In this document: one piece after another, positions 49,220 to 64,000 of the stretch | Position numbering within the stretch: position 1 is the stretch's first letter | Layout: every line of letters begins with the position of its first letter | NCBI GenBank assembly: GCA_963716925.1 | Contig: CAVQUX010000015.1 | Span: 426,964-490,963 of the forward strand | Direction of reading: 5' to 3' | DNA from: an uncultured Acidobacteriota bacterium | Lineage (GTDB): Bacteria; Acidobacteriota; Vicinamibacteria; Marinacidobacterales; SMYC01 | DNA: 64,000 bases | Notes under the pieces: generated by a model | Databases searched by the model: none | The model's input: only the letters and a program-made list of their open reading frames with translations | Told to the model about the DNA's origin: nothing | Translations under genes and position numbers: made by a program

Positions 49220-50192
49220 TCAGTAGACGTCCAGATCGCGGCCGACGACGACTTGTCCCGAATAGCCCGACATTTCGCTCAGCACGGCCGCCGGCGTCGA
49301 CCGCTCGGCGTCGACAGCAGGTCGCAGGGACATCGAGGCGTGGTAGAGAATCAGCAATCGTGGCTTGGCCTGCGTGGCGAGCTCGGTGAGCTGCGCCGTC
49401 GTCGTGTGGAATTGCGCGGCATAGCCTCGGAAATCCTGGCGTTTGGCGAGCCACTCCAGCGTCAGCACCTCGTGAATCAACACGTCACATCCGTGGCAGG
49501 CGTCGATCGTCGCCTGCGTCGGATTGGTGTCGCCCGAGATGACGATGCTGCGGTCGGGCGTGTCGAATCGGTATCCGTAGCTTTCCATCGCGTGCTTCGT
49601 CGGGAAGGCCGTGACGGTGACGTTGGCGTCCTTGTAGACGACGCCGGCGCGGATCTCGTGCGCGTTCACGGCATGGCCCTCGGGAAACGCGCCCACTGAA
49701 TACGGCTGCGGTCCTTCGTCCGCGTCTCGAAGTCGGCGCTGTACGCTTCGAAGAGATGCTCGGTCATCGCCTTGATTCCCGCGGGACCATAGACCTCCAA
49801 GGGGACGCGCCGTCCGATCACCCAGGGCGTGAGAATCAGGTCCGGGTATCCGACGGTGTGATCGGAATGAAGGTGCGTCACGAAGACGACCCGCAGTTTG
49901 ACCGGTTCCAGCGCGGGGATTCCCCGGTCGACGACCGCGGACTTCGCACGCCGTACGACTCCGGCGCCGATGTCCACCAGGTACGGCGTGCCGTTCACGA
50001 CGACCGCCGTCGCCGGTCCTGACCGATCGGGGTCGGCGGGAGGATTTCCGGTGCCAAGTAGCACGATCTGCGTCTGATTCGGCTCGGCCGTTGACGTCTG
50101 GCGCTCGGCGGAAAGCTCGTCGTGACAAGGACGACCGAACCGAGGACCGCTTCGCACAGTACCGCTTTTGGAATTCGTCTTTGATTGGGCAA
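49220..50192 (-). pseudogene. RNase Z-like MBL-fold hydrolase with frameshifts near 50115 and 49695
   Basis: LLGTGNP, THLHSDH, ISGDT, DVLIHE and LYH spread over three frames. Confidence 0.82.
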
Positions 50193-50392
50193 TGGGGTGA
50201 GGCAGGGGCCGAGGAGTCAATGAGCCGAAGCCTCCCGGCCCCGTTTTTCTGGATGGTTGCGTCATCCTCTCCGTCTCGATTAAGCTACCCACAGAAATCT
50301 AGGAATTCGTAAGGTCACGCCTTGCCATAGTCGCCAAAGCCGACGGGCAGAACTTCATGGGATCCACCGGTTCGGCATTAACCGGGGGAACC

Positions 50393-51244
50393 ATGACACG
50401 CTATCTCGGAATCGTGGCGATGCTTCTATTCTTCGCTTCGAGCTTTGCCGAAGCGAGCGCCATCCTCTTAGGGGACCGCAGGGTGGTTTTCGGAGAGGCG
50501 CGTGCCACTTCGAATGATGATGGCGATCTGGAATTTGACCGCCTAGAACCATCATCTGAGTTCGCACCTTTCAACGAAACCGCTACCTTCCAGGCCACAG
50601 TGGGAGACACAGGCTCGCAAGGAATCGCCAGCCAGAACAGTTCCGTAACTACAAGTCTGATTACCGGTAGTGGAGAGATGGACTACAGTGCGTTTCTTGC
50701 TGGGCAGGCTGAAGTTGAAAGGGCAACCGCGCACGCAGCGTCGAACTTCGACATCGGTTTCATTTTGACTACGCCGCACACGTTCGATTTTTCGGGCCTC
50801 ATGTCGATCGAAGCGAGCCTAAGAGGCAGTGAAGCCGATGGATTTCTCGGTCTAATTGGTCCGGTTGGCTTCGGCTTCCAACTGTTCGCAGTTCCGGGAT
50901 CACTGACTTCTTTGCCTGTCACCCAATCCGGAAGACTTACGCCTGGGAGCTACGTGTTGTTCGCTGGCTTTAGGGGTTCAGCCAATACGGACAGCAGCCT
51001 GGGGTTGTCGACGAGCAGTGGTGGTGGAGATTGGGCCTTCGAGTTTCGACTTAATGAGATCACGGGTGTGCCCGAGCCCACATCCCTATGGCTCCTGGCT
51101 CCGGTCGTTTCCGGAGCGCTCTTCAGGAAACGCCTGTCGTCCAACCCGGCACGTTTCCCCTTCGTCGGCACCACGAATAGCCGGTCCGCGGCTCTCAAAG
51201 AGAGCAGAGGTCGTTCGTTCCTGGTGACTCGGTGGATGAAGTAG
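50393..51244 (+). CDS. PEP-CTERM surface protein
   Basis: Signal; VPEPTSLWLL..FRKR; lower GC than the flanking core genes. Confidence 0.8.
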   Translation: MTRYLGIVAMLLFFASSFAEASAILLGDRRVVFGEARATSNDDGDLEFDRLEPSSEFAPFNETATFQATVGDTGSQGIASQNSSVTTSLITGSGEMDYSAFLAGQAEVERATAHAASNFDIGFILTTPHTFDFSGLMSIEASLRGSEADGFLGLIGPVGFGFQLFAVPGSLTSLPVTQSGRLTPGSYVLFAGFRGSANTDSSLGLSTSSGGGDWAFEFRLNEITGVPEPTSLWLLAPVVSGALFRKRLSSNPARFPFVGTTNSRSAALKESRGRSFLVTRWMK

Positions 51245-51462
51245 GCGCTCGCCTTCCAGCGTGCTCGACTCCTCCAAACTAGAATGCACTCCATGATGGA
51301 GAAACGCGGTTCCGTCCGTCTAAAGGAGGAGTTGTTAATAGGCAAAGTACTATCAGCTTGGTGGAGATAGGTGGGGTCAGAATGCTGGAACGGCCCCTTC
51401 GCAGTTTGGATAAACCCAGAGGGCGCCTTGGCGGGAAAAGTAAATACCGGAGGGTAACGCCA

Positions 51463-52986
51463 ATGAGAATACTCTTGCTCGCGGTCCTGGGCGCGTTTCC
51501 CCTCAATGCCGCCGCAGAGATCCAGATCATCTCCGCGACGTACGGTCCCAATTGCGGGGCGGCGCACGACAACGCCAGAGATGCCGTCGCGGCGGCGTGC
51601 AACGGTCAGAAATCGTGCGTTTACACGGTCGATTACCACGTGCTAGGCGACCCGGCTCCGGGCTGCGCCAAAACCTTTGTGGCGGAATGGACTTGCGCCA
51701 CAGGCGCCCGACAGCATCGACAAGAGCTGCCGTCCGAGGCCGGCCTCGGCTCGCAACTGAAGCTCGCCTGCGGACTTGGCGCGATCGCGGGCAGTATCGT
51801 CGCCAACCCGAACGAGAACGATACTGCCGCACAGGCTGCGGCAGAATGGATTGTGCCGCCTACGCCAGAGACTCCGGTAGTAGAGATTCTGCCTCCCACG
51901 CTAGAGATAACCGCAATCAACCCCTCCCAACCGATCTTTAATGCCCCTTGGGGTGTTCACTTTCGGTTAATCAACAACTGGCTCGCTCGGAAGCCGTTGA
52001 CGGGCTGGCTCGAGGCAGTCGCCTACGATTCGTCAGATCCTGTGAAAGCACATGCGATCGGTGGGCAAAGCTACCCCATCGCGGATTTGCAGGTGGATCA
52101 GGTCGCCGAAGGTGATCTTGTCTTCTTGACTACCTCTTCAATCGGGAATGGGTATGTGGAGCTGACGTACTTCAATATCTCCTCGGGCTATTCCCCAGCT
52201 CCACGCTCATCGGATGGCGTCCTTCCTGATGTTCCACCTGATGTGAAGGCGGAGCTACTGGGCAGCGGCAATGCGGGAGCGCTTTCCACGGCAAGGTCAG
52301 ACGTCGTCGTGGTTCCCTCCGAGTCCGAGAAGTTCGCGGTCGTTTTCGATTTCGACACGGACAGCTGTTATCCGTCAGCTGCGGTGTCCGATGAGGGAAT
52401 CGTGAATCCCGGACTCTCAGTAAATGACTGGGGCATCACCTCGGGGTGTCGGCAGGGGGGTCAACTGGAAAAAGCCAAGACGTATTACCGCAAAGAATCC
52501 ATTGGAGACTACAGCGTCCATATGTATGCGCTTTACTTCATGAAGGACAAGGCCGCCGATAGTGTCAGCGGCCATAGACATGACTGGGAGTTTGCACTGG
52601 TCTGGACAATTAATGGCGCGATCACTCATGCGAGCTACAGCCACCACGGCGACGTCACCACGCAAGCGAGATCCGAACTCTATTTTGATCTCGACGCAGA
52701 GGACCATGTCAAAATCGTCTACCACCATGATGGTGCCTTGACTCATGCGATGCGGTTCGCGGGCAAAGACGAACAGGCCGAGAACCATCTGGGTCGTTGG
52801 GTGACACCGACCTTAGTTGATTGGCACACCATGACGGAGGAACTCCGGCGCAAATTCAACGAACATGATTTCGGGGAGGCTAATTGCTCGTTCAACGACT
52901 CAAACTTTCCTGAAGAGATCGCGAAGTCGCCTCCGCCGGGCTACCCGTCCGGGGCTGACTGGAAAGCGGCCGCTAGGAACCCATGA
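51463..52986 (+). CDS. Secreted SUEL/rhamnose-binding lectin domain fused to an NPP1 (Nep1-like) domain
   Basis: IISATYG..C...CNG..SC....LGDPAPGC.K; C-terminal DSCYPSAA, MYALYFMKD and the GHRHDWE heptapeptide. Confidence 0.88.
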   Translation: MRILLLAVLGAFPLNAAAEIQIISATYGPNCGAAHDNARDAVAAACNGQKSCVYTVDYHVLGDPAPGCAKTFVAEWTCATGARQHRQELPSEAGLGSQLKLACGLGAIAGSIVANPNENDTAAQAAAEWIVPPTPETPVVEILPPTLEITAINPSQPIFNAPWGVHFRLINNWLARKPLTGWLEAVAYDSSDPVKAHAIGGQSYPIADLQVDQVAEGDLVFLTTSSIGNGYVELTYFNISSGYSPAPRSSDGVLPDVPPDVKAELLGSGNAGALSTARSDVVVVPSESEKFAVVFDFDTDSCYPSAAVSDEGIVNPGLSVNDWGITSGCRQGGQLEKAKTYYRKESIGDYSVHMYALYFMKDKAADSVSGHRHDWEFALVWTINGAITHASYSHHGDVTTQARSELYFDLDAEDHVKIVYHHDGALTHAMRFAGKDEQAENHLGRWVTPTLVDWHTMTEELRRKFNEHDFGEANCSFNDSNFPEEIAKSPPPGYPSGADWKAAARNP

Positions 52987-53009
52987 TCGCTGCTCGGTGC
53001 TCACCGTCT

Positions 53010-53433
53010 TCAGTGACGATACTCGCGACCAGGAGCTCGCCCCGGGGTAACGAAGGCGGGCCGCCTCGAGTTTGGTGTCCTCTTGTTCCGAAAGAGGCCG
53101 CCGGTCTATTACGCGTTCGATCTCCTCTGGTGGGACGGTGCGGACCTGGGCGACTATCCGCTCTTAAGGCGGAAGGAGTTTCTCAGGGGGCGACTACCTG
53201 CAGAGTCCGAGAAGATTCTCTTCGCCGATCATGTTGAGGAAAAAGGGGTCGAGTTTTTCGGCAAGGTGTGCGCAATGGATCTCGAGGGAATCGTCGCGAA
53301 GCGGAAGATGTCACTCTATCGGGACGGAACGCGCTGGCTAAAGATCCGAAATCCGAACTACAGCCAGAAGGAGGGGCGGAGAGAGCTGTTCGAGTCGCGG
53401 CGGACACGGACAGAATGGGCGGTCCTAAAGTAG
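53010..53433 (+). pseudogene. 5'-truncated ATP-dependent DNA ligase fragment
   Basis: YYAFDLLW, PLLRRK, EGIVAKR and WLKI motifs; KxDG motif I absent. Confidence 0.8.
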
Positions 53434-53487
53434 CTGATTGAAGACAGTTGGATTGCCGCCGTAGAATCTCGCGAAGGAGCCGTTCCC

Positions 53488-56104
53488 GTGATCGGCCGCA
53501 CCCTATCTCACTACAGGATTCTCGAGAAGCTCGGCTCAGGCGGGATGGGAGACGTCTACCTCGCCCAGGACACAGAGCTTAAACGCGACGTAGCGCTCAA
53601 AGTGCTCCCGCCGGAGCTAGCGGAAAACGAGGAGAGGCGAGCCCGGTTCAATCGAGAAGCGCGAACCGTCGCCGCGCTGAACCATCCGAACATCGTCACC
53701 GTGTACTCCGTGGAGGAGGCCGAGGGCATTCACTTCATCACCATGGAACTTGTCCGGGGGAAGACGCTATCGGAGCGGATCCCCAAGGGAGGCCTCTCCT
53801 TGGAGAGATTCTTCAAGATTGCCATCCCGCTTGCCGACGCCGTCGCAGTGGCTCACGACCATGGGATCATCCACCGCGATCTGAAGCCAGCCAATGTGAT
53901 GCTGACGGAAGACGGCCGGGTCAAGGTGCTCGACTTCGGTCTGGCTAAGCCGACGGCGGGTCTCTCGAGCGGTGACGGCGCTGCGAGCGAACTACCGACG
54001 GCGGCGAGGACTACGGAGGGTGTGATCGTGGGGACGGCGAGCTATATGTCCCCGGAGCAGACGGAAGGAAAGACGATCGATCCTCGCTCGGACATCTTTT
54101 CCCTCGGGGTGGTTCTTTACGAGCTTGCCACGGGGCAGCGCCCCTTCCGCGGCGACAGCGCGACCGCCGTTCTCTCGTCCATTTTGAAGGACACACCTGT
54201 TTCGGTGATGGAGCTCAAGCCGGAGCTGCCCTCCGAGCTCTCGAAGATCGTTCGGCGTTGCCTCGTCAAGGATCCGGAGCACCGTTACCAGAGCGCCAAG
54301 GACGTCCGCAACGAGATCGAGGAACTCAAGCAGGAAATGGACTCAGGAAGCCTGGTAGCCTCCCAGCGTCCGACGGAGGTCCGTCGGTCGGGACCGGTCA
54401 TCGCCGTACTCGGGCTTGCAGTCGTGTCGGTGGTGTTTGCGGCGTGGTTCCTGTCGCGCCCCCGGACGAGGAGCGTGCCGCGACTCGTGCACCCCGTGCA
54501 GCTCACGTCGGCTATCGGCGTCGAGGACCATCCCACGTGGTCTCCAGACGGGCGCATGATCGCTTATGAATCTCAGCAGAGCGGAAACTGGGACCTCTGG
54601 GTCACTCAAGCAGAAAAAGGACAGCCCGTTAACCGAACCGCTGATTTTCCCGGATTGGATCGCCGCCCGAGCTGGCACCCCGATGGCTCCGCCATCGCGT
54701 TCGTCTCCGAGAGAGAGGGGGGCGGCTGTTTCGTGTCGCCGGCAGTAGGCGGCGAACCGCGTCGAAGACAGGCTACTAGGCGGTTTAATTCAGTGCCGCA
54801 GTGGTCATCGGATGGCCAGGAAATTGCGTGTCTCGTCCGCGAAGACCCTGGGACGGACCTCGACATCCGCAATGTCTCGACACAGGAAGTGAGGCGCCTG
54901 CGCTTCTCCGGTCTGATAGACACGCCTTTCGACCTGAGCTGGTCTCCCGACGGTCGTTTTTTCGCATACGTTGACGCCGTCGATGACGCTTCGGACGTGA
55001 CGTTCGTCCGAGTGTTACGGATGGCCGACGGACAATCGTACCCCATGACCGACGGCCGTACGAAGGACCGCAGCCCGAGCTGGTCCGCCGATGCCCGGGC
55101 TCTCTACTACGTCTCGAATCGTGGTGGGAGCATGGACCTCTGGCAGCAATCCCTCACAGCGGACGGCGAGCCCGAAGGCGCGCCCCGGCCCGTCACGGTG
55201 GGAATCGATATGCGAAGCGCGGTTTTCTCACCCGATGGGGCGATGCTCGCTTATTCCCGCGGTCGGCCAGTGGCGAACCTCTGGCGGGTCTCTATTCTTC
55301 CCGGACGTCCCGCGACCTGGAAGGACGCTACCCAGCTTACATTCGACCAAGTCACCGTGGAGTTCATGGACGAGTCCCCAGACGGGAAATGGATCGCAGT
55401 GAACTCCGATCGCAAGGGGAACCATGACGTGTGGATCCTTCCCGTGGAGGGGGGGGACATGCGCCAGCTCACGCTCGACCCGACACCGGAATGGAAGCCC
55501 ACCTGGTCTCCAGACGGGAAGTACCTTGCGTTTTACGCCTATCGCAATGGAAACCGTGATATCTGGATCATGCCAGCCGAGGGGGGAGCCTGGCGTCAGG
55601 TGACGAGGGACGAATCGGACGAGTATAACGAGCGCTGGTCTCCCGACGGTCTCAGCCTTGTGTTCCAGAAGAACAGGGACATATGGAAGATCTCCGTTGA
55701 CGGCACCGAAGAGGTTCAGTTAACGGTTGATCGTGCTATCGATGCCCGTCCCGATTGGTCGCCCGACGGCAAGTGGATTGTGTTCGATTCCGACCGAACC
55801 GGGTCACGCCGCCTTTGGCGAGTCCAAGCGGAAGGGGGCGACGCCGAGCCTCTCACGAAGGGTCCCGGCTTACGGCCTTTCTTTTCGAACGATGGAAGGC
55901 GTGTCTTTTTCGAGGGCGACGGGGAACGGAACCGGGAATTTTTGGGAGCTTTCTCTGGAGGACGGGGAGGAGCGCCCTGTGACCGATCTTCGTGGAAGGC
56001 AGGGGGAACTTCTTCGCCATTCCGTCTCTCACGACGGGAAATCGCTCTACTTCACCTGGAGCGAGGACCTCGGCGACATCTGGGTCATGGATGTCGTTCA
56101 ATGA
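53488..56104 (+). CDS. Ser/Thr protein kinase with TM and TolB/PD40 repeats (frameshift near 55930)
   Basis: [25 protein letters not shown] and YMSPEQ; WSPDG repeats; last blade lies in frame 55727-56104. Confidence 0.93.
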
Positions 56105-56477
56105 TTGACCGAATCCCCACTCCAGGGTCGTCGAGGAGGTTAGCCGAAGAGGGATAGGTCGAGAGCGAACTAGCACCGGTCCCCGTACCCTCGCAGAACA
56201 GCGTCGGGTTGGTCCTTCGCAGTTTCAGGCCCACGAAGAGGCCCACTTGAACAGCTTGAAAGCGCGCCCTTTGCGCGAGAGTGGTCCTTGGGACGCCGCA
56301 GTTTCATGATCCGAATGTAGATGACAAGGGCCAGCGTGCTATCAAGCCATCTAGCCGCCTCCCGATACAATGGTCCCAGGCCCACGTCTAGCCAACTCTA
56401 TTGTCGCCAGAACTAAAGACTGGGCCATCCCGGTGGTCCAACCAGGCCCAGACGGAATCCATCTCCGGTGCGCCCCT

Positions 56478-56674
56478 CCCCCAAGAAAATCTGGGGGTGT
56501 GTGAGAGCTAAATCTCTCCTCCTCACTCTCCATCTCAATCGTCACACCCATAATTACTTTAGAGGGGGTACCCCCTATAGCAGTTCCGGGTTGTGTGCGT
56601 CTTCAGTCCCTTCTCCTCTCTCTCCTCTCTCTACTCACACAACCCTGTTTGGTTTAAGGGGGTGGGTGGGACAC
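56478..56674. repeat. Two tandem ~91-bp quasi-palindromic units (A 56478-56568, B 56571-56662) joined by AGGGGGTACCCCCT
   Basis: Each unit reads CCCCC-N10-12-GGG(G/T)TGTGTG-pyrimidine tract-CACAC(AA)CCC-N12-14-GGGGG. Confidence 0.8.
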
Positions 56675-56800
56675 GCCGACCACATCGGACGAAGTCGGGT
56701 TCTTGGTTCTCATAAGGTCCACTCGTGTGGGAACCTCTCCGGGGCGGACATTCTAGTACTATTTCACCGGTCGCGTTCCGACCGAAAACTGGAGGTATCG

Positions 56801-57241
56801 ATGATTTGGACCGCTCTTCTCTCGCTCCTCGCAGCCGCGGGAGCCGCGCAGCAATCCACGGTGAATGAGATCGAGAAGATCGAGGTCGTCTTCAACGGGG
56901 CGTACGAGCGAAACGAGCTCGACGCCTACTTCTCCTACTTCGCCGATGACGTCACGATGTGGTTCGAGAGCGGGAGGGTGAATCTCGCCGACTACAAGAA
57001 AGACTGGTACGCGCTCATCAAAGGAGGCGGCGGCGTCGAGAAGAACGCGCTCTCCGACATGCGCGTGCAGGTCTCGCCGGGCGGAGAGACCGCCATCGCC
57101 ACATACAAGTTGGATGTCCTCACCCGGCAAGCCGACGGAAAAAAGACCAAAGAGCAGGCCTACGAGACCGACGTCTGGTTCAAGCGCGATGGGAAGTGGA
57201 AGCTCGCTCACGCTCACTACAACTCGAAAGTGGTGCCCTGA
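56801..57241 (+). CDS. Secreted NTF2-like (DUF4440/SnoaL) protein
   Basis: RBS ggagg; signal; TDVWFKRDGKWKLAHAHYN. Confidence 0.88.
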   Translation: MIWTALLSLLAAAGAAQQSTVNEIEKIEVVFNGAYERNELDAYFSYFADDVTMWFESGRVNLADYKKDWYALIKGGGGVEKNALSDMRVQVSPGGETAIATYKLDVLTRQADGKKTKEQAYETDVWFKRDGKWKLAHAHYNSKVVP

Positions 57242-57378
57242 AGAAGGACGCTCGACTCTCGGACATCCTCGACCGGCTCCCTTCTCGCTCGAAGCGCACC
57301 GAGGCGGAACGGAAGCAGGGGCGCGGATTCGAGACGCCCTGATTACAAACTGCGTTCAGCCGGGTGGCACCGCCTCCA

Positions 57379-58882
57379 TCAAGAGTGCAAGCGCTTTCGA
57401 CAGAGCTTCGGGGCGCGGTATGTGACCTTGACTACCGCTTCGCCCGGTTCAGCACCTTTGTAGTGTCCGAGGCGTACGACCACGAGGCTGTGCGAAGGAA
57501 TGATGATGGTGTACTGGCCTCCCGCTCCCTGCATGGAGTACGCCTCCCTGGGAATCGGGAACGCGTCCGTTCCGTTGATCCAGAAGAAACCGCCGTAGAC
57601 TGGCCTTCCGTCTGCGGCCCACGCCGGTGCGACCGTGCTTACGAACTTCGTGTAGCCCTCCGGGAGGATCCGCTCCCCGTTCCAGACGCCGTCCTGGAGA
57701 TAGAGATTGCCGAGCCGCGCCCAATCTCTAGCCGATCCGAGCTCGTAGCCCTGGAGTAGGAAGTTCCCGTAGGGGTCGGCCTCGACTACCATGTTGCGGA
57801 TCCCGATCTTGTCGAAAAGCTCGCGCCGCGGAAAGAAAGATACTCCTCGCCCCTTCCTTCGACTCCGAGCCGCACGAGGTAGTTGATGAGCACGGGGTCG
57901 CAGTTGCGGTAGCGTCCAACGGTGTTCGGCGGCCACTCCTGCGGCCGGGTCGCGGCCCAGGAAAATGAGTTGGCGCCGCCGGTATAGAGGTAGAGGTGAT
58001 CGGGGTAACCGAGGGATGGATCGAGTCCGGGCTCGCCGGGCGCGGGGCATCGCAACCCGCTCGACATCCGGAGGATATCCTGAATCTTGATTTGTGCCCT
58101 CGGGATCCCCTCCTCCTGCCATTCCGGAATCGGCGCCGGTTGCTCGAGCTGATAGACGCCTTTCAGGATCATCATACCCATGAGCGTCGCCGTGAGGCTC
58201 TTTCCCATCGACCAGCTTTCGAGCGGCGTGTGCATGTCGATGCCGTCCGCGTATCTCTCGCCGATGAGGCGGCCCTTCCAGGTGACGACGAACGCGGCGG
58301 TCATTTCAAGAGACTCGAACGCGGCGTCCACCGCCGCAGCGACTTTGGCGGCGTTGAGCTCTGCGCGGAGAGGCTCCTCGGGGAGCAGATCCCCCATGGG
58401 CCACGGAGTCGTCGCGGCGTCGGGAAGAGTCGACGTGAGCTTCACCGGCGTGTAGTGGATGGAGTCCTCGCCTTTGGCAAGGGCCACACAGCCCTGGTCT
58501 CCCAGGTACTTCGCGGTGCGCACGACGCCGGTATCGAGCGTCAGGTGAACCGCCTTGTTCTCGCGGTCGATGCGCTTCTCCGTCACGTGCTTGCGTTCCT
58601 CGTACGGGCCAGTGAAATAGCCCACGTTCTCCGCGCGAAGTCGGGGTCGAGACCGGTGATGAAGACTGCCGAGCAGAGGGTTTTGGCAAAGCCCGCCGTG
58701 TGGTGCTCGAGCGCGTCTCCCGGAGGAGGTGTGTACTCTGTCTTCAGCTCGAGCGGCTTCGCACGAGCGATGAGCGCTTCGTCAGAGCCGGGCGGGGGAG
58801 AAGCGACGGGCTCGGCGGGCGGTGGACCGCCGCAGGCGGCGCAGAGGATGAGCACGATTCCCAGGAACGTAGCGCGTCTCAT
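57379..58882 (-). pseudogene. Lipoprotein serine hydrolase (beta-lactamase class C-like), frameshifts near 58634 and 57830
   Basis: LCAAC lipobox; SWSMGKS (SxxK), LRMSSGL, Y.N, ARLG.LYLQDG.W and GAGGQ across three frames. Confidence 0.85.
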
Positions 58883-59002
58883 GTCGACCTCCGGGGTGGA
58901 TTCTATTGATGTCGCGCGGATAAATCGACGACGGTATCCAGACCCCGCAGGAACAACCCGAGGACTCACACTCTGCCCGTAGCGGATCGAGGGGACAGGT
59001 CA

Positions 59003-59106
59003 GGGTACCCCCTATAGCGATTCGGGGTTGTGTTCCAATTCCCGATATCCATCTCTCCCTCTCTACTCACACACTCCTGATTGGTTTAGGGGGGGCGGGT
59101 GAACAC
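59003..59106 (+). repeat. Third quasi-palindromic unit (C), an imperfect direct repeat of 56566-56674
   Basis: Shares gggtaccccctatagc..ttc.gggttgtgt...ctctctactcacaca..cctg.ttggttta.ggggg. Confidence 0.85.
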
Positions 59107-59229
59107 CAGGCTGATCGACTGCCGTCTGATCTCGCGGCCGGTTTCGCAGGCCAGTGCCGGGAGTTCTCCGCAGGATTTTGATGGATTAGAAAAGTAGGGT
59201 CGCCCTCGGGATGGAAACAAGTGAGCCTT

Positions 59230-59420
59230 AAGGTGCGTCCCAACGATTTTGTGGTGGAGCAGCTCGGGAACAACGCGGCTCGCTGCTTCGCACGAGGAAC
59301 AGAGTCCGCGTCCTTTGCAGGAAAAGGCAACCGGAACTCGGCACGAACGACGAACAGAAAGGAGAGGTCCGAGTAAGCCCCAAGCTTGAACCGGGAAAGG
59401 TTCCCTATGATACAGAAATC
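59230..59420 (-). mobile_element. Decayed IS91-family (rolling-circle) transposase zinc-binding domain remnant; boundaries approximate
   Basis: VAFSCKGRGLCSSC matches the IS91 Zn-domain motif (L/V)AFSCKxRxxCPSC; Y2 catalytic domain not seen. Confidence 0.65.
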
Positions 59421-59462
59421 GCCTCGTCAGCTGGGTGCCGCATCTCGCGGAGTTCACCCCTT

Positions 59463-61250
59463 ATGCGTAATCCGGAGCTTCTAATCCGAGCCGAGGACAG
59501 AAGATCCGTTTCTTTTCCCTCTCGAAAAAGAACTCACTTCGATCGGTCGGTCAAATCAGAACGACCTTACTCTCGTCGACAACCAACTCTCTCGCCATCA
59601 CGCGGAGATTCGAAGAGAAGGGGGGCGGTACTGGTTGAGGGATTCTCGCCAGTCGCTTCGGCACAGAGATCAACGGGAATACCATCCGGGAAAGTGTTCT
59701 CCTCCAAAACGGCGACGTAATTAAGCTCGGCAACATATCCATCCGATTCGTGGCCGGATCTTCTGACGCTGTCGTGCTGGGACCTTTCGGTGATGATGGC
59801 GGTCAGTTCTCCGGGCGAGATCAAGCAGACGACACGGGGTCTTGGCTCTGGGAAGGCACCGACTGCCTCGCAGCTCGGAGTCCCTGAGCCGAGGGTGACG
59901 CGGCCCGAAGCATCGGGTACCCAAATCTGGCGGAACGTGCTCGACGCAATAGCGGGGCCGATGCGAAAAATGGGCTCGGCGACTCGCAAGCGAAAGCTGA
60001 TGGTGAGCGTCCTCAATCAAGCCAGCGTCGCGCTCGCTCAGGGCTTCTCGATGAAGGAGTTCCTGGAACATCTCCTCGAATTGCTCCAAGAGGCGATGCC
60101 AGCAGATAGAACTGCATTCGTAGAGATCCGCGACGAGGAGCCTCGGATCCGGCTACGAGCGGTTCGCGTGAGAGAAACTGGTCTGGATTCACAGTTCCGG
60201 CTCGCTCACTCGATCTCCTGCGCGTCTTGGCTCACGCTGGAAGAGGCACCGTTTCTTACGAGCGGCCGATCGAAACACTTCGTCAGCGGTGCCATCCAGG
60301 ACTTCCTGGCAGCGATCGGTGCTCGGTCCGCAATGTGGGCTCCCTCCGGACTAGCGAGAGGTTGACTGGCCTCCTTTATGCCGACACCGTCGGGGGAAAG
60401 GGCGTCTTCACGGAAGGCGACCTCTCGCTCCTGACATCGCTCGCCAACCTCGCAGCTGTCAAGATCGAAAATGCGATGTTGTTCGAGCACATAGCTGAGA
60501 AGAAGAGGATGGAGCATGAGCAGGCGGTGGCTGCTGAAATACAGCGGAGTCTCCTTCCGGTAGTGCTCCTAAGCTCCCCGATTGGGACTTCGCGGGCACC
60601 AACGAGCCCTGTTACAGCATTGGAGGCGACTACTACGATTTCGTCCCGAGGTCGCAGGGTCGCCTGGCTTTGGCACTCGGAGATGTGTCGGGGAAGGGAA
60701 CAGGAGCAGCGTTAATGATGATGGTCCTTGGGACGACCGTGCGGGCTTGTTCCGAGCAAGAAGGCGATGTCGCTTCCATCATTGCACAGACGAACCGGGT
60801 GATGTGCCGGAACACGCCTACCCACGCCTTCGCGACCTTCTTCCTTGGAGATTCTTACCGAGCTCATGCGAACTTCGTTACGTGAATGCTGGGCACATCC
60901 CACCCATTGTCCATCGCGCGCGTGATGGAGATGTCCTGCGACTGGAAGAAGGAGGGCCCGTGCTCGGGCTCTTCGAGGAGTCCGTGTTTCAGGTCGGCAC
61001 TGTTCGGCTCGAACCCGGTGATTTACTTGTAGCGTTCACAGACGGTGTCAGCGAGAGTTGGAGCGATGACGAGGTGGAGTTTGGCGAAGAGAGGGTCATT
61101 GATGTGATTCGCAGGAACGCCGCACTCCCTTCCGGCGAATTGGTTGAAAATATTCTGGGAGAGGTAGACGAGTACATCGTGGAGCTCACCCCACTGACGA
61201 CCGGACGCTGATCGTCGCGAAAAGATGTTCACCCGAAATGGGAGACGGGT
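59463..61250 (+). pseudogene. FHA-GAF-PP2C (SpoIIE) phosphatase with multiple frameshifts
   Basis: IGRS..NDL...SRHHAEI..GT.ING (FHA); GLLYAD...F...DL.LL..LANLAA..IENA (GAF); GGDYYD, GDVSGKG, NAGH and FTDGVSE in shifting frames. Confidence 0.82.
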
Positions 61251-61522
61251 GAAGCATTCGATAGCCCCCGCGCTTCGGTCCCTTACGATTCTCGACTTTG
61301 CGCATTGACGGACGCTCTCGACGCTCGAGTTCGGGGTGCTGTCCGGGGTAAGTGACGAAGATATTCGCCTGGCGAACCGTCGGACAACCCGGACGGCCTC
61401 TTCTCCTCTAGAGAAAGGAAGAGAGAAAGGAGAAGAAGAGATAGTGCCCAAGGACTTCGGAACTGCTGTCCAGGCCGTCCGACGGACAGACGGCGTCGCG
61501 CACGAGAAACCGCTGTTCGCAT

Positions 61523-62110
61523 TCAGCTCTGGCGTTTTCTCCTGTACCCGACGATGTGCACCAGCCCCCATCCGAGCACGAAGAGCATGGAGGGTTCGGG
61601 AATAAAGAGGATTTCGTTGAGGCCGAACGCTGGGCTGACTCCTGATGCTCCTCGACCCTGGTACTCCATCCGTAAACGAGCCCACTCCGTGTCGACTGAA
61701 GCAAACGGAATGATGATGGGCTTTGGATAGTTGGGTGTGTCTCCTGGTAGGCTCGCAAGCGTAGTCCAGGTGCCGTCGAATCCGTCCGTGGTGTCGGAGC
61801 TCCACTGCACGTCGAGTTCCCCGGCGGTCCAGACATCAAGCGGGTTGATAAACCACAGGCCCACCGCCTGGAGCGACGTGGTGGCCTTGAAGTGGTACGC
61901 GAGGATGTTGACAGCTCCCAGCGGGATGTCGTTCACGCCATGCCACTGTGTATCGAGATCTCTGTCGATCGTGCGCTCTGGGCCTGCGGGGAACGGACAG
62001 GTTGTGCAGTAGTCACCGGTGACTGTGATCAATTCAGGCGGGATGACGGAAGCGGTGGCGTTGGCTGCTACCAGTACGCCGATGATGCCGAAGACAAGTT
62101 GCGTCCGCAC
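61523..62110 (-). CDS. PEP-CTERM protein with discoidin/F5-8-like domain
   Basis: GTG start after an RBS; IDRDLDTQW; IPEPSMLFVLG..YRRKR. Confidence 0.8.
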   Translation of the reverse strand: MRTQLVFGIIGVLVAANATASVIPPELITVTGDYCTTCPFPAGPERTIDRDLDTQWHGVNDIPLGAVNILAYHFKATTSLQAVGLWFINPLDVWTAGELDVQWSSDTTDGFDGTWTTLASLPGDTPNYPKPIIIPFASVDTEWARLRMEYQGRGASGVSPAFGLNEILFIPEPSMLFVLGWGLVHIVGYRRKRQS

Positions 62111-62132
62111 AACCTGGTTCCCCTTTTTTCGG

Positions 62133-62741
62133 TCAACGGCGGGAGCGACGAAGACACCCAACAAACCCCATGGCCAGAAGCAGTGCCAAGCCGGGCTCTG
62201 GAACCAGGTCCACTGTGAAATTGTCGAAGCTGAACCCGTTTCCTGCGACATAGACAACGGAGAAGGGATCGCCCGCCGCCAGGAAGATATCGCCGAGAGA
62301 CTGCAATCCAGTGCTGGTGATGTCGATGCTCGGCTCGCCGGTGATGTCGATTCGTCCCTCGTCCAATGAGCCGAAGATGGATACCGAGAGGTTCCTCAAG
62401 ATCACATCGCGGTCAAACACGATCTGAACCGATTCCCCCGTACAGCCGCCGTCGATCTGGGAGGACTCTTCCATCCCTCCGCAGGTCGTGTTGACGACGT
62501 TGATGCCGAAGGACGAGGCGGTTCGATTCAGAAAGAGATCCCGCAGCGGAGGTTCGTTGAAGGTCGATGGCAGCGCGGTGAGCGTCGCTGTCAGCCCATC
62601 CTCGGTCAGGCTGAACGAGTTCACCTCGTCGACGTTCTCGATCTCCGGCGCTCGGAGGTCGAAGAAGATCGGCGCGGCGAATGATGCGGAGGGGATCAGC
62701 AAACCAAGGGCGAGAGTAATGCGAGTGAGGACGGTCTTCAC
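62133..62741 (-). CDS. PEP-CTERM surface protein
   Basis: RBS aaggagg then GTG; signal; VPEPGLALLL...LRRSRR. Confidence 0.85.
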   Translation of the reverse strand: MKTVLTRITLALGLLIPSASFAAPIFFDLRAPEIENVDEVNSFSLTEDGLTATLTALPSTFNEPPLRDLFLNRTASSFGINVVNTTCGGMEESSQIDGGCTGESVQIVFDRDVILRNLSVSIFGSLDEGRIDITGEPSIDITSTGLQSLGDIFLAAGDPFSVVYVAGNGFSFDNFTVDLVPEPGLALLLAMGFVGCLRRSRR

Positions 62742-63095
62742 AGCAGCCTCCTTATTCGAAATCGCCTGCCGAACGGCATTGGGGGCTGCCGCGAATAGGC
62801 TTGCAGTATTACTTCCTTCCTTTTGCCAACGGGTCAACGGAGTACCTGTCAAAGTTGACGACCGCCGATTCATAGAAGCATCGAGACGGTCCCCTCGCAA
62901 GCCCCTTCCGCAACTCCGGTGTCGCCACCGGGGGCGGTTCCCGATACGGCATAGGAAAATTCCTGATGAATTTGTAGGCGTCTAACTGTGTTGGTGGAAA
63001 ATTGCCATTTCTTTGGCTGGGCAGGTGAAATCCTTTCTCCAATCCGTCATATACAGAAGAGACCTCGAGAGAACGCGTAAATAACCCAAGACGAC

Positions 63096-64000
63096 ATGAC
63101 ATCTAGGCACAAGGCCACACCCACGCGAAGACGTTCGCCGCACACTCCGGGAATTGCGTCGGCGGTCGCGCGGGGTCGCGCGCAGGCGGAAGAGATTGTC
63201 GCGTTCCGCACTAAGCAACGGAGGAAGCGGGCGCGCGTCATCGCTGCGCACCCGGCCTTGGGGCAGGACCTTCAACCACGCCGAATCCCGGCGCGCACGC
63301 TCAGCGCTTTAGGGCCCCGGGGGTCCACCGGCATCCTGATCGCCGAAGGTGACTCCTGGTTCGATTACCCGATGAATGACGTCTTGCGCGTGCTTGAGGA
63401 CGACCATGGCTACGATGTCGAGTCCGTGGCCCACTGGGGCGACTGCGTCGAAGACATGGCGTATTCCGGAGGACAGTTCGAGGAGTTCGCGCGTCGACTG
63501 GAAAAACTACTACGCCGGGGCCGCGTCCCTGACGCGATACTCATCTCCGGCGGAGGCAATGACATCGCAGGAAAAGAGTTTGCAGTGATCCTGAACCACG
63601 CGGCCTCTGGGCTTTCCCCTATCAATCAGGACGTGGTGCGCGGAGTAGTCGATGTGCGCCTCCGTGACGCGTACGCCTTCTTGATCGGTGGCCTGACACA
63701 GATTTCCCGGCGATATCTCAACCAGCCGATCGAAACCCTGATACATGGCTACGACTACCCAGTGCCAGATGGGCGCGGGTTCTTGGGAGGCTGGGGGCTA
63801 TTTCCAGGCCCGTGGCTGCAGCCCGGTTTCCGTAAGAAGGGTCACTCGGACCCATCTAGCAACGCTAGAGTCATGCGACAACTCATCGACTCTTTTAACG
63901 AGATGTTGATGAAGGTCAGCGCTGCCCCGCAATTCGGGCACGTGCACTACGTCGATCTACGCGGGACTCTGGCGACGGATGAAACATACAGGGAGGACTG
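63096..64000 (+). CDS. SGNH/GDSL hydrolase family protein (runs off the window; absent from the ORF track)
   Basis: Open frame from ATG 63096 with IAEGDSWFDYP, ISGGGND, HGYDY and YVDLRG. Confidence 0.85.
   Translation, partial: MTSRHKATPTRRRSPHTPGIASAVARGRAQAEEIVAFRTKQRRKRARVIAAHPALGQDLQPRRIPARTLSALGPRGSTGILIAEGDSWFDYPMNDVLRVLEDDHGYDVESVAHWGDCVEDMAYSGGQFEEFARRLEKLLRRGRVPDAILISGGGNDIAGKEFAVILNHAASGLSPINQDVVRGVVDVRLRDAYAFLIGGLTQISRRYLNQPIETLIHGYDYPVPDGRGFLGGWGLFPGPWLQPGFRKKGHSDPSSNARVMRQLIDSFNEMLMKVSAAPQFGHVHYVDLRGTLATDETYRED

Follow-up and report, generated by a model that had tools for sequence, protein, structure and literature searches.

The subject of this report is a set of three short repeated elements, units A, B and C, in a 64,000-nucleotide stretch of DNA (the window) from contig CAVQUX010000015.1 of an uncultured Acidobacteriota bacterium (assembly GCA_963716925.1). 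The units are probably copies of a repeat block that, in small mobile elements, lies at the 3′ end of a gene for an ATPase which resembles the helicases of the MCM family and carries a helix-turn-helix of the winged type (wHTH), i.e., replication origins that would have been orphaned by the loss of their helicase and integrase genes. This is the most likely reading of the sequence comparisons because the layout is that of the pathogenicity islands of Staphylococcus aureus (SaPIs), in which opposed repeats directly follow the gene of a self-loading helicase. Throughout, G000 is the genome studied, C6, C14 and C15 are its contigs, other genomes are numbered G and loci are numbered L.

Architecture of the three units

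Units A, B and C are confirmed as a real feature. They lie where the first-pass annotation, which had been made from the sequence alone, had placed them, and its account of the boxes and spacers of B and of the palindrome between A and B was verified in full.

56478..56568: unit A; left arm about 56478-56501, pyrimidine tract, inverted right arm about 56543-56567; homologue of the unit after the ATPase gene in L069, L070 and L072
56563..56576: 14-bp palindrome, where the right arm of A and the left arm of B meet
56571..56662: unit B; arms 56571-56595 and 56638-56662, perfect 10-bp inner boxes, 38-nt pyrimidine loop
56663..56700: tail of unit B, about 40 bp; common to the A+B pair on C6 and, weakly, to C
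59008..59095: unit C; arms 59008-59032 and 59070-59094

The plan of a unit is two opposed arms of about 25 bp (a run of C, a TAAA-like motif, a spacer and GGG(G/T)TGTG) flanking a pyrimidine tract; the loop is 74-89% pyrimidine on the + strand, with 47-54% AT. There are two to four arms per block, and the arm catalogue includes unpaired third arms. In unit B the 10-bp boxes form a perfect inverted pair, with a 12-nt spacer on each side and a 38-nt loop; the palindrome at the A/B junction is perfect over 14 bp and fails at 16 bp. Units B and C are indeed imperfect direct repeats (78% identity over 92 columns), and the interval from B to the start of the C repeat is 2,340 bp. The annotation had also assigned one shared box to all the units; the architecture is common to them, but A has a GGGGTGTG-type box and B a box of the GGGTTGTG type. 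When a pattern was derived from the units, its matches in the window were confined to these three places, and 100 shuffles gave none. Rfam covariance models gave no match in the units and a single chance match (E 8.6) outside them.

Contig C6 carries a second A+B pair, likewise with the tail of about 40 bp, and the two pairs share 79% identity over 224 bp. When a profile of the five units was run against the 8.3-Mb genome, just these five were returned (the next match had E 8), and eight of the nine matches of an arm search at ≤2 edits belong to them. According to the annotation, its observation would be refuted if no further copies or conserved spacing existed elsewhere or if the duplication was a mis-assembly. 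Further copies do exist, on C6 and in eight other genomes, and mis-assembly is an unlikely source of the repeats, because the five units are only 58-83% identical to one another, the A+B tandem is also present in G002, and a junction of a right arm with a B left arm, similar to the A/B palindrome, was found on a contig from an unrelated sequencing run.

Repetitive extragenic palindromes (REPs) and the REPINs built from them are known by a GTAG-type tetranucleotide, a short palindrome, high copy number and a nearby REP-associated tyrosine transposase (RAYT). This identity was rejected, as there are only five copies in 8.3 Mb and the tetranucleotide matches are the CTCC/CTAC of the pyrimidine tract; no RAYT search was made.

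The attC sites of integrons, and the arrays of such sites known as CALIN (clusters of attC sites lacking an integron integrase), consist of inverted repeats that are imperfect, have a pair of boxes in each arm and show a strand bias, and sometimes flank genes in direct orientation; their cores are RYYYAAC and GTTRRRY. The units share the inverted repeats with two boxes per arm, which in them are nested and have spacers, as well as the strand-biased loop, and direct-oriented units flank genes both in the window and in G013 and G006. When folded as single-stranded DNA, B is more stable than its shuffles (z -3.7/-3.4), as might be expected of attC-like hairpin recombination sites of an unknown cassette system, the interpretation which the annotation had put first. 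However, it is highly improbable that the units are such sites. The folding holds for B alone, as A (z -1.4/-0.9) and C (0.0/-1.1) do not beat shuffles; attC cores occur in 0 of 3 units; and the covariation between arms in 20 sequences scores 0.086, against a shuffled mean of 0.088, with 253 of 500 shuffles reaching that score. Furthermore, no recombinase adjoins the G000 loci, the cargo between B and C is two convergent genes, and homologous units overlap the coding ends of ATPase genes. No B/C junction, circular junction or empty site was seen in four DNA runs, of which small shares were searched and which barely cover the units. Since the arms are conserved without covariation, only B folds and unpaired third arms exist, binding sites for a protein fit the units better than a hairpin does.

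Homologous units at the 3′ end of ATPase genes

A looser pattern matched four genome loci, all already seen, and seven metagenome loci, two of which are unrelated and two of which are orphans beside kinase genes. L071 and L073 were dropped as pattern matches without outer arms or a pyrimidine tract, in which model R2 scores nothing. The remaining three (L069, L070 and L072) are linked to an ATPase: each has an intact gene for an ATPase-wHTH protein of 412-465 aa, with the unit placed at its 3′ end or overlapping it, and an arm begins in the last codons, after a conserved W-x-W-L motif. The three ATPases have 57-61% mutual identity. In L072 the order is a 30-bp piece of tRNA-Ser, a MerR-type HTH, a Xis-like HTH (phrog_66), the ATPase and the arms.

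A profile made from these three units alone recovered A on C6 (E 3.6e-9), A (4.4e-8) and B (2.9e-7) from G000, with C at E 0.012, B on C6 at 9.6 and no match outside the five units. The arm can also be followed in the proteins: 18 of the 120 listed members of the ATPase family end in a translated arm, compared with 0 of 521 internal windows and 3 of 12,000 shuffles, by a pattern that was composed after the C-termini had been inspected. The minus strand of unit C translates to PLNQSGVC, which resembles the arm encoded in the C-termini of the ATPases. Thus, the evidence supports the second interpretation in the annotation, that of iteron remnants of a satellite, and the decayed rep gene ends which it had named as a refuting condition, in that the 3′ end of a gene for an MCM-like ATPase-wHTH protein is overlapped by homologous units. 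The tail of unit B lies on the side where intact elements have the ATPase gene; the idea that the tails are coding remnants of that gene was dropped as unsupported.

The ATPase family

Members of the family have an invariant Walker A, a KEL motif, DGxG, GATT and a conserved arginine, followed by the lid and the winged helix. The family comprises 136 members at E ≤ 0.001 (120 of them listed, P0001-P0120), of about 420 aa, as well as the proteins of L069, L070, L072 and L089. The hosts that bear a name belong to Acidobacteriota and Binatia. Among the genomes searched, members are present in 2 of 401 genomes of the phylum, 3 of 401 genomes of the class, 2 of 39 (the same two) and 7 of 137 genomes of another class. 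None was found in viral contigs, GenBank phages or plasmids. A structure model from 87 sequences reached a predicted local distance difference test score (pLDDT) of 92 and a predicted template modelling score (pTM) of 0.90; an earlier model from three sequences was unusable (pLDDT 39). In a Foldseek search with the later model, nearly all the listed matches were MCM subunits (best E 2.9e-8, template modelling (TM) scores 0.42-0.47, 10-15% identity), so the predicted fold has its best match in MCM helicases.

Among structural neighbours of the ATPase in the Atlas there are Toprim, Prim-Pol or DnaG zinc-ribbon domains. Two genome matches are fused to a primase, and in G485 the fusion partner of a distant relative is an archaeo-eukaryotic primase (AEP; hhalign probability 98.9). 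In G583 and G485 the gene order is tRNA, integrase, Xis, ATPase; in G800 a close ATPase (E 5e-125) has a Xis-like HTH on one side and an integrase on the other, and a single box resembling an arm (5 edits) follows about 190 bp downstream of the ATPase; and in G305 the ATPase lies beside terminases. The loci L082 (9070-11454) and L083 (9052-11550) encode primase-ATPase fusions of 826-846 aa, with an inverted repeat and pyrimidine tract of their own at the 3′ end, and one of the two adjoins terminase genes. L101 (7079-8900, in G814) holds a C-terminal fragment of the ATPase family beside two tRNA-His genes and is another decayed element. A literature search, with subscription papers mostly outside it, found no description of the element or of the ATPase family in Acidobacteriota.

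Comparison with known replication origins

The SaPI origin lies directly after rep (PMC9371898; bioRxiv 10.64898/2026.10.17.759575) and consists of oppositely oriented iterons around an AT-rich region, bound by the C-terminal winged helix of Rep; SaPI Rep2 is described as MCM-like (the SF6/MCM-like prototype), and fusions of pri and rep occur. The likeness to SaPIs, and to phage-inducible chromosomal islands (PICIs) in general, is that the unit homologues of L069, L070 and L072 directly follow an AAA+ helicase-like gene with a C-terminal winged helix (the window copies have no such gene), that repeats in opposite orientation flank a central tract, and that there are primase-fused relatives, with an integrase and Xis in the same element. 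The arms here are bipartite and about 25 bp long, with two to four per block, whereas SaPIs have 6-12 pentamers or hexamers over about 300 bp; and the centre is purine/pyrimidine-biased here and AT-rich in SaPIs, so that the combination of an AT-rich centre with iterons of 5-6 nt is absent. The first arm lies within the last codons of the gene here, the ATPase has no sequence match to solved Rep or Cch structures, no helper-phage or packaging genes are in evidence, and the window copies are without rep and int. In terms of the integrase and attachment (att) sites of PICIs, an integrase, Xis and a tRNA are present in G583 and G485, an integrase and Xis in G800, and none of these at the G000 loci.

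The cryptic integrated elements of Thaumarchaeota carry MCM or Cch-like helicases (PMC6563490). These elements, and the staphylococcal cassette chromosome SCCmec with its Cch, are like those described here in that they are small, are integrated, and encode an integrase together with a replication protein of the MCM-type AAA+ class; they differ in that the host here is an acidobacterium, the ATPase family is unnamed and the candidate origin is seen without genes. The units are most likely orphaned origins that belonged to integrative elements whose MCM-like helicase is unnamed.

Because the layout matches that of SaPIs, the ATPase would form a self-loading hexameric helicase, and its winged helix would bind the arms of about 25 bp, in double-stranded form, to either side of the strand-biased tract. 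The helicase would then open the DNA at the tract and start replication of the excised circle. The same arms could instead be sites at which the ATPase-wHTH protein binds for autoregulation, packaging or the initiation of transfer, as the loop is not AT-rich, the close ATPase family has no fused primase, and the MCM fold scores are moderate, with other AAA+ ATPases scoring close. However, such a role outside replication is quite unlikely, given the primase-fused relatives and a unit directly after the gene, as in the rep-ori layout of SaPIs.

Related units in other genomes of the order

Related units occur in eight other genomes of the order (Acidobacteriota, Vicinamibacteria, Ca. Marinacidobacterales), in two families in all. 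Model R1 detected units in eight of the order's 54 other genomes, G007 being among them and then dropped; model R2 added G018. The match in G007 (E 0.004) has different boxes and was excluded from alignments A2 and A5 and from the tRNA count given below; located at L017 1460-1585, between core genes, it has a similar architecture with boxes of GGGGATGTG type and is possibly an origin relic of another specificity. The degenerate second units of G013 and G006 were also left out of alignment A5. A search of 100 genomes from the remaining orders of the class, with only 27 candidates scored in each, yielded no units. The BLAST search that the annotation had proposed, run with A+B against 60 relatives, gave one low-complexity match, and the homologues surfaced by profile searches only. 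A first strict pattern found nothing in the viral or genome collections, two further patterns found nothing in viral contigs, and the single pattern match in the plasmid collection was judged to be chance.

Six of nine loci in relatives lie ≤6 kb from a tRNA or tmRNA gene, compared with 6.2% of G000 bases, a count in which one of the three misses (L040) spanned just 1.5 kb per side and in which the loci are kin and not independent, four of the six being at tRNA-Met. Remnants of a tyrosine integrase are present at the tRNA in four loci of relatives, and in G013 and G002 the remnants share 54-70% identity with the integrase that accompanies the ATPase in the G583 element. Two units are bounded on one side by a tRNA or tmRNA gene and on the other by a copy, exact over 41 or 27 bp, of the end of that gene, with 7-9 kb from gene to copy; in these islands with att-like bounds the unit is present and the ATPase is absent. 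Many copies in the relatives are truncated or degenerate, their flanks differ and the integrase remnants are broken.

The annotation had also proposed a tabulation of neighbouring recombinases, which brought to light no dedicated recombinase and no common transposase beside the units in relatives. Miniature inverted-repeat transposable elements (MITEs) are characterised by a target-site duplication, an empty-site allele and a cognate transposase with the same ends. The units would pass for MITEs, or for isolated transposon ends with bipartite terminal inverted repeats, in being dispersed elements of about 90 bp with inverted ends, one to five per genome, in transposase-rich regions; in G000, both loci are less than 200 bp from IS91-like pieces, which with margins cover 0.12% of the genome. 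Nevertheless, there is very little likelihood of this, as the neighbouring transposases vary by locus (IS256, IS3, ISL3, IS110, IS91), half arms and three-arm arrays exist, the copy number is low and arms lie inside ATPase coding ends.

Other observations concern the surroundings of these units. Orphan units repeatedly follow the ends of Ser/Thr kinase genes of PD40 or TPR types (window 53488-56104, L027, L030, L067, L068, L029). In G013 and G006 there are direct-oriented units at gene-length spacing. In G013 a GGGTCCCA-type repeat block fills the slot that is occupied by the unit in G006 (L028 4200-4080 and 2460-2230; L031 6231-5090): block and unit precede the same 401-bp region (88% identical), and elsewhere in G013 both blocks abut. 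In L067 (2230-2460) and L068 (30-285) the unit adjoins a GTGAC-type inverted-repeat block, with an extra direct-repeat arm on the other side.

The loci in G000

The genes around the units in the window, and the region of low GC content in which they lie, are as follows.

53488..56104 (+): Ser/Thr kinase-PD40 gene, frameshifted near its 3′ end; stops about 370 bp before A
56801..57241 (+): NTF2/SnoaL-like (DUF4440) gene; paralogue on C6, 79% identical
57379..58882 (-): serine hydrolase (PF00144) gene, split over several frames; paralogue on C14, 81% identical
59129..59339 (-): truncated IS91-like transposase fragment, zinc-finger region; ends about 33 bp from C
50000..64000: left part of a low-GC island; 58-62% GC in the window, down to 46% beyond (genome mean 65%)

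The NTF2 and serine hydrolase genes are convergent, and their paralogues elsewhere have no adjoining units; they are paralogue copies in the low-GC island, not an established cassette. The split of the serine hydrolase gene reflects either a pseudogene or long-read indels. The island begins at about 50 kb of the window, spans at least 56 kb and reaches the end of the contig. A Pfam scan of the open reading frames from 42 to 64 kb of the window and in the next 39 kb (the last 3.5 kb of the contig lying outside the scan) found cargo and one IS3-type transposase, with no integrase and no helicase; the part scanned has no tRNA. The cargo (C15, 477000-533265) includes two-component systems, a P-type ATPase, cytochrome c, glycogen genes and a resistance-nodulation-division (RND) pump, and many genes are broken over frames (decay or long-read errors). 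Within the window, the island also contains a gene at 51358-52986 (+) for a 542-aa protein with a weak SUEL-type lectin match and an NPP1 domain (necrosis-inducing protein family, E 3e-43); a C-terminal fragment of an ATP-dependent DNA ligase domain (PF01068) is found at 53083-53433 (+).

The fragment beside C, which the annotation had called an IS91 zinc-finger remnant, has no Pfam match of its own; the assignment stands in so far as it matches IS91-like copies elsewhere in the genome, and the open reading frames of the copy on C6 match Zn_Tnp_IS91 and Y2_Tnp. At the C6 locus the downstream end of an IS91-like element is about 70 bp from B. IS91-like fragments abut both G000 loci, a point in common with the IS91 family (oriIS/terIS). 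The downstream end of the intact IS91-like copy is a different one, of its own, and the other IS91 pieces of the genome have no unit. Of separate note, L001 (2040-4030 and 12660-12875) contains an IS91-like element with a split tnp gene and duplicated pieces of neighbouring genes (the 3′ end of GGT and the 5′ part of a dehydrogenase gene), as well as a tnp-less copy of the IS91-like downstream end beside unit B; about 15 IS91-like pieces occur genome-wide.

Because truncated IS91 pieces are present at both G000 loci, deletions together with IS91-type rearrangements may be what took out the rep and int genes, and origin pieces of more than one element would have been left beside unrelated cargo. 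On that account, B, the cargo and C would form a mosaic and not a precise cassette.

Probable orphaned origins or possible modules served in trans

Several points weigh against the reading of the units as orphaned origins. The ATPase domain has no Pfam, PHROG or PDB sequence match beyond a weak AAA match, and no MCM Pfam match; in the Foldseek search the TM scores were below 0.5, and another AAA+ ATPase (2r44) appeared at rank 14. The loop is not AT-rich, unlike the SaPI origin. Distant relatives of the ATPase gave 0 unit matches in 21 sources. There is no tyrosine integrase on C6, and the sole one on the contig of the window is more than 400 kb away; the nearest tRNA genes are about 240 kb and about 97 kb from the two G000 loci, with no att piece at either. 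The kinship of the loci behind the tRNA count belongs here as well. The direct parent of the G000 copies was not found, because no member of the family was found in G000 or in the order's 54 other genomes, of which only 4 candidates each were scored, and no C-terminal remnant of the ATPase was present in 17 orphan flanks (best E 0.69). Finally, copies without a helicase are oddly common in one order, often right after kinase genes.

As these copies are common in one order, follow kinase genes, and abut or replace other repeat blocks, there is room for a different explanation: that copies without a helicase are still functional, as non-autonomous mini-satellites of origin plus cargo served in trans by the MCM-like Rep of a helper. 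B, the cargo and C would then be a real module. The persistence of ATPase-less units in nine genomes and two families would be accounted for, as would the gene-length spacing of direct-oriented units in G013 and G006, the different repeat blocks in the same slot before the 401-bp region, and the two att-bounded islands with a unit and no ATPase. However, the genomes of the order that were searched have no helper ATPase, many copies are truncated or degenerate, the flanks differ, the integrase remnants are broken, and no circular junction or empty site appeared in the reads, which barely cover the units. This explanation is therefore unlikely, with a small but appreciable chance of being correct. 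The same small chance is given to its broader form, in which the origin of the MCM-like helicase family is a stand-alone, swappable cis module, and origin-plus-cargo units without rep and int, B-cargo-C among them, are fired in trans by helpers. If that were true, neighbouring genes (kinases, NTF2 proteins, hydrolases) would be amplified and shuffled.

Under the preferred reading of orphaned origins, the copies in the window itself are most likely inert relics, which limits their interest. The wider interest is that at least 136 bacterial ATPase-wHTH proteins, an MCM-like family without annotation, are tied to a candidate origin of only about 90-180 bp. This may be a compact system for helicase self-loading outside Staphylococcus, in which the arms are long and bipartite and a purine/pyrimidine tract replaces the AT-rich one. 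In Vicinamibacteria, the unit also marks decayed tRNA-targeted islands.

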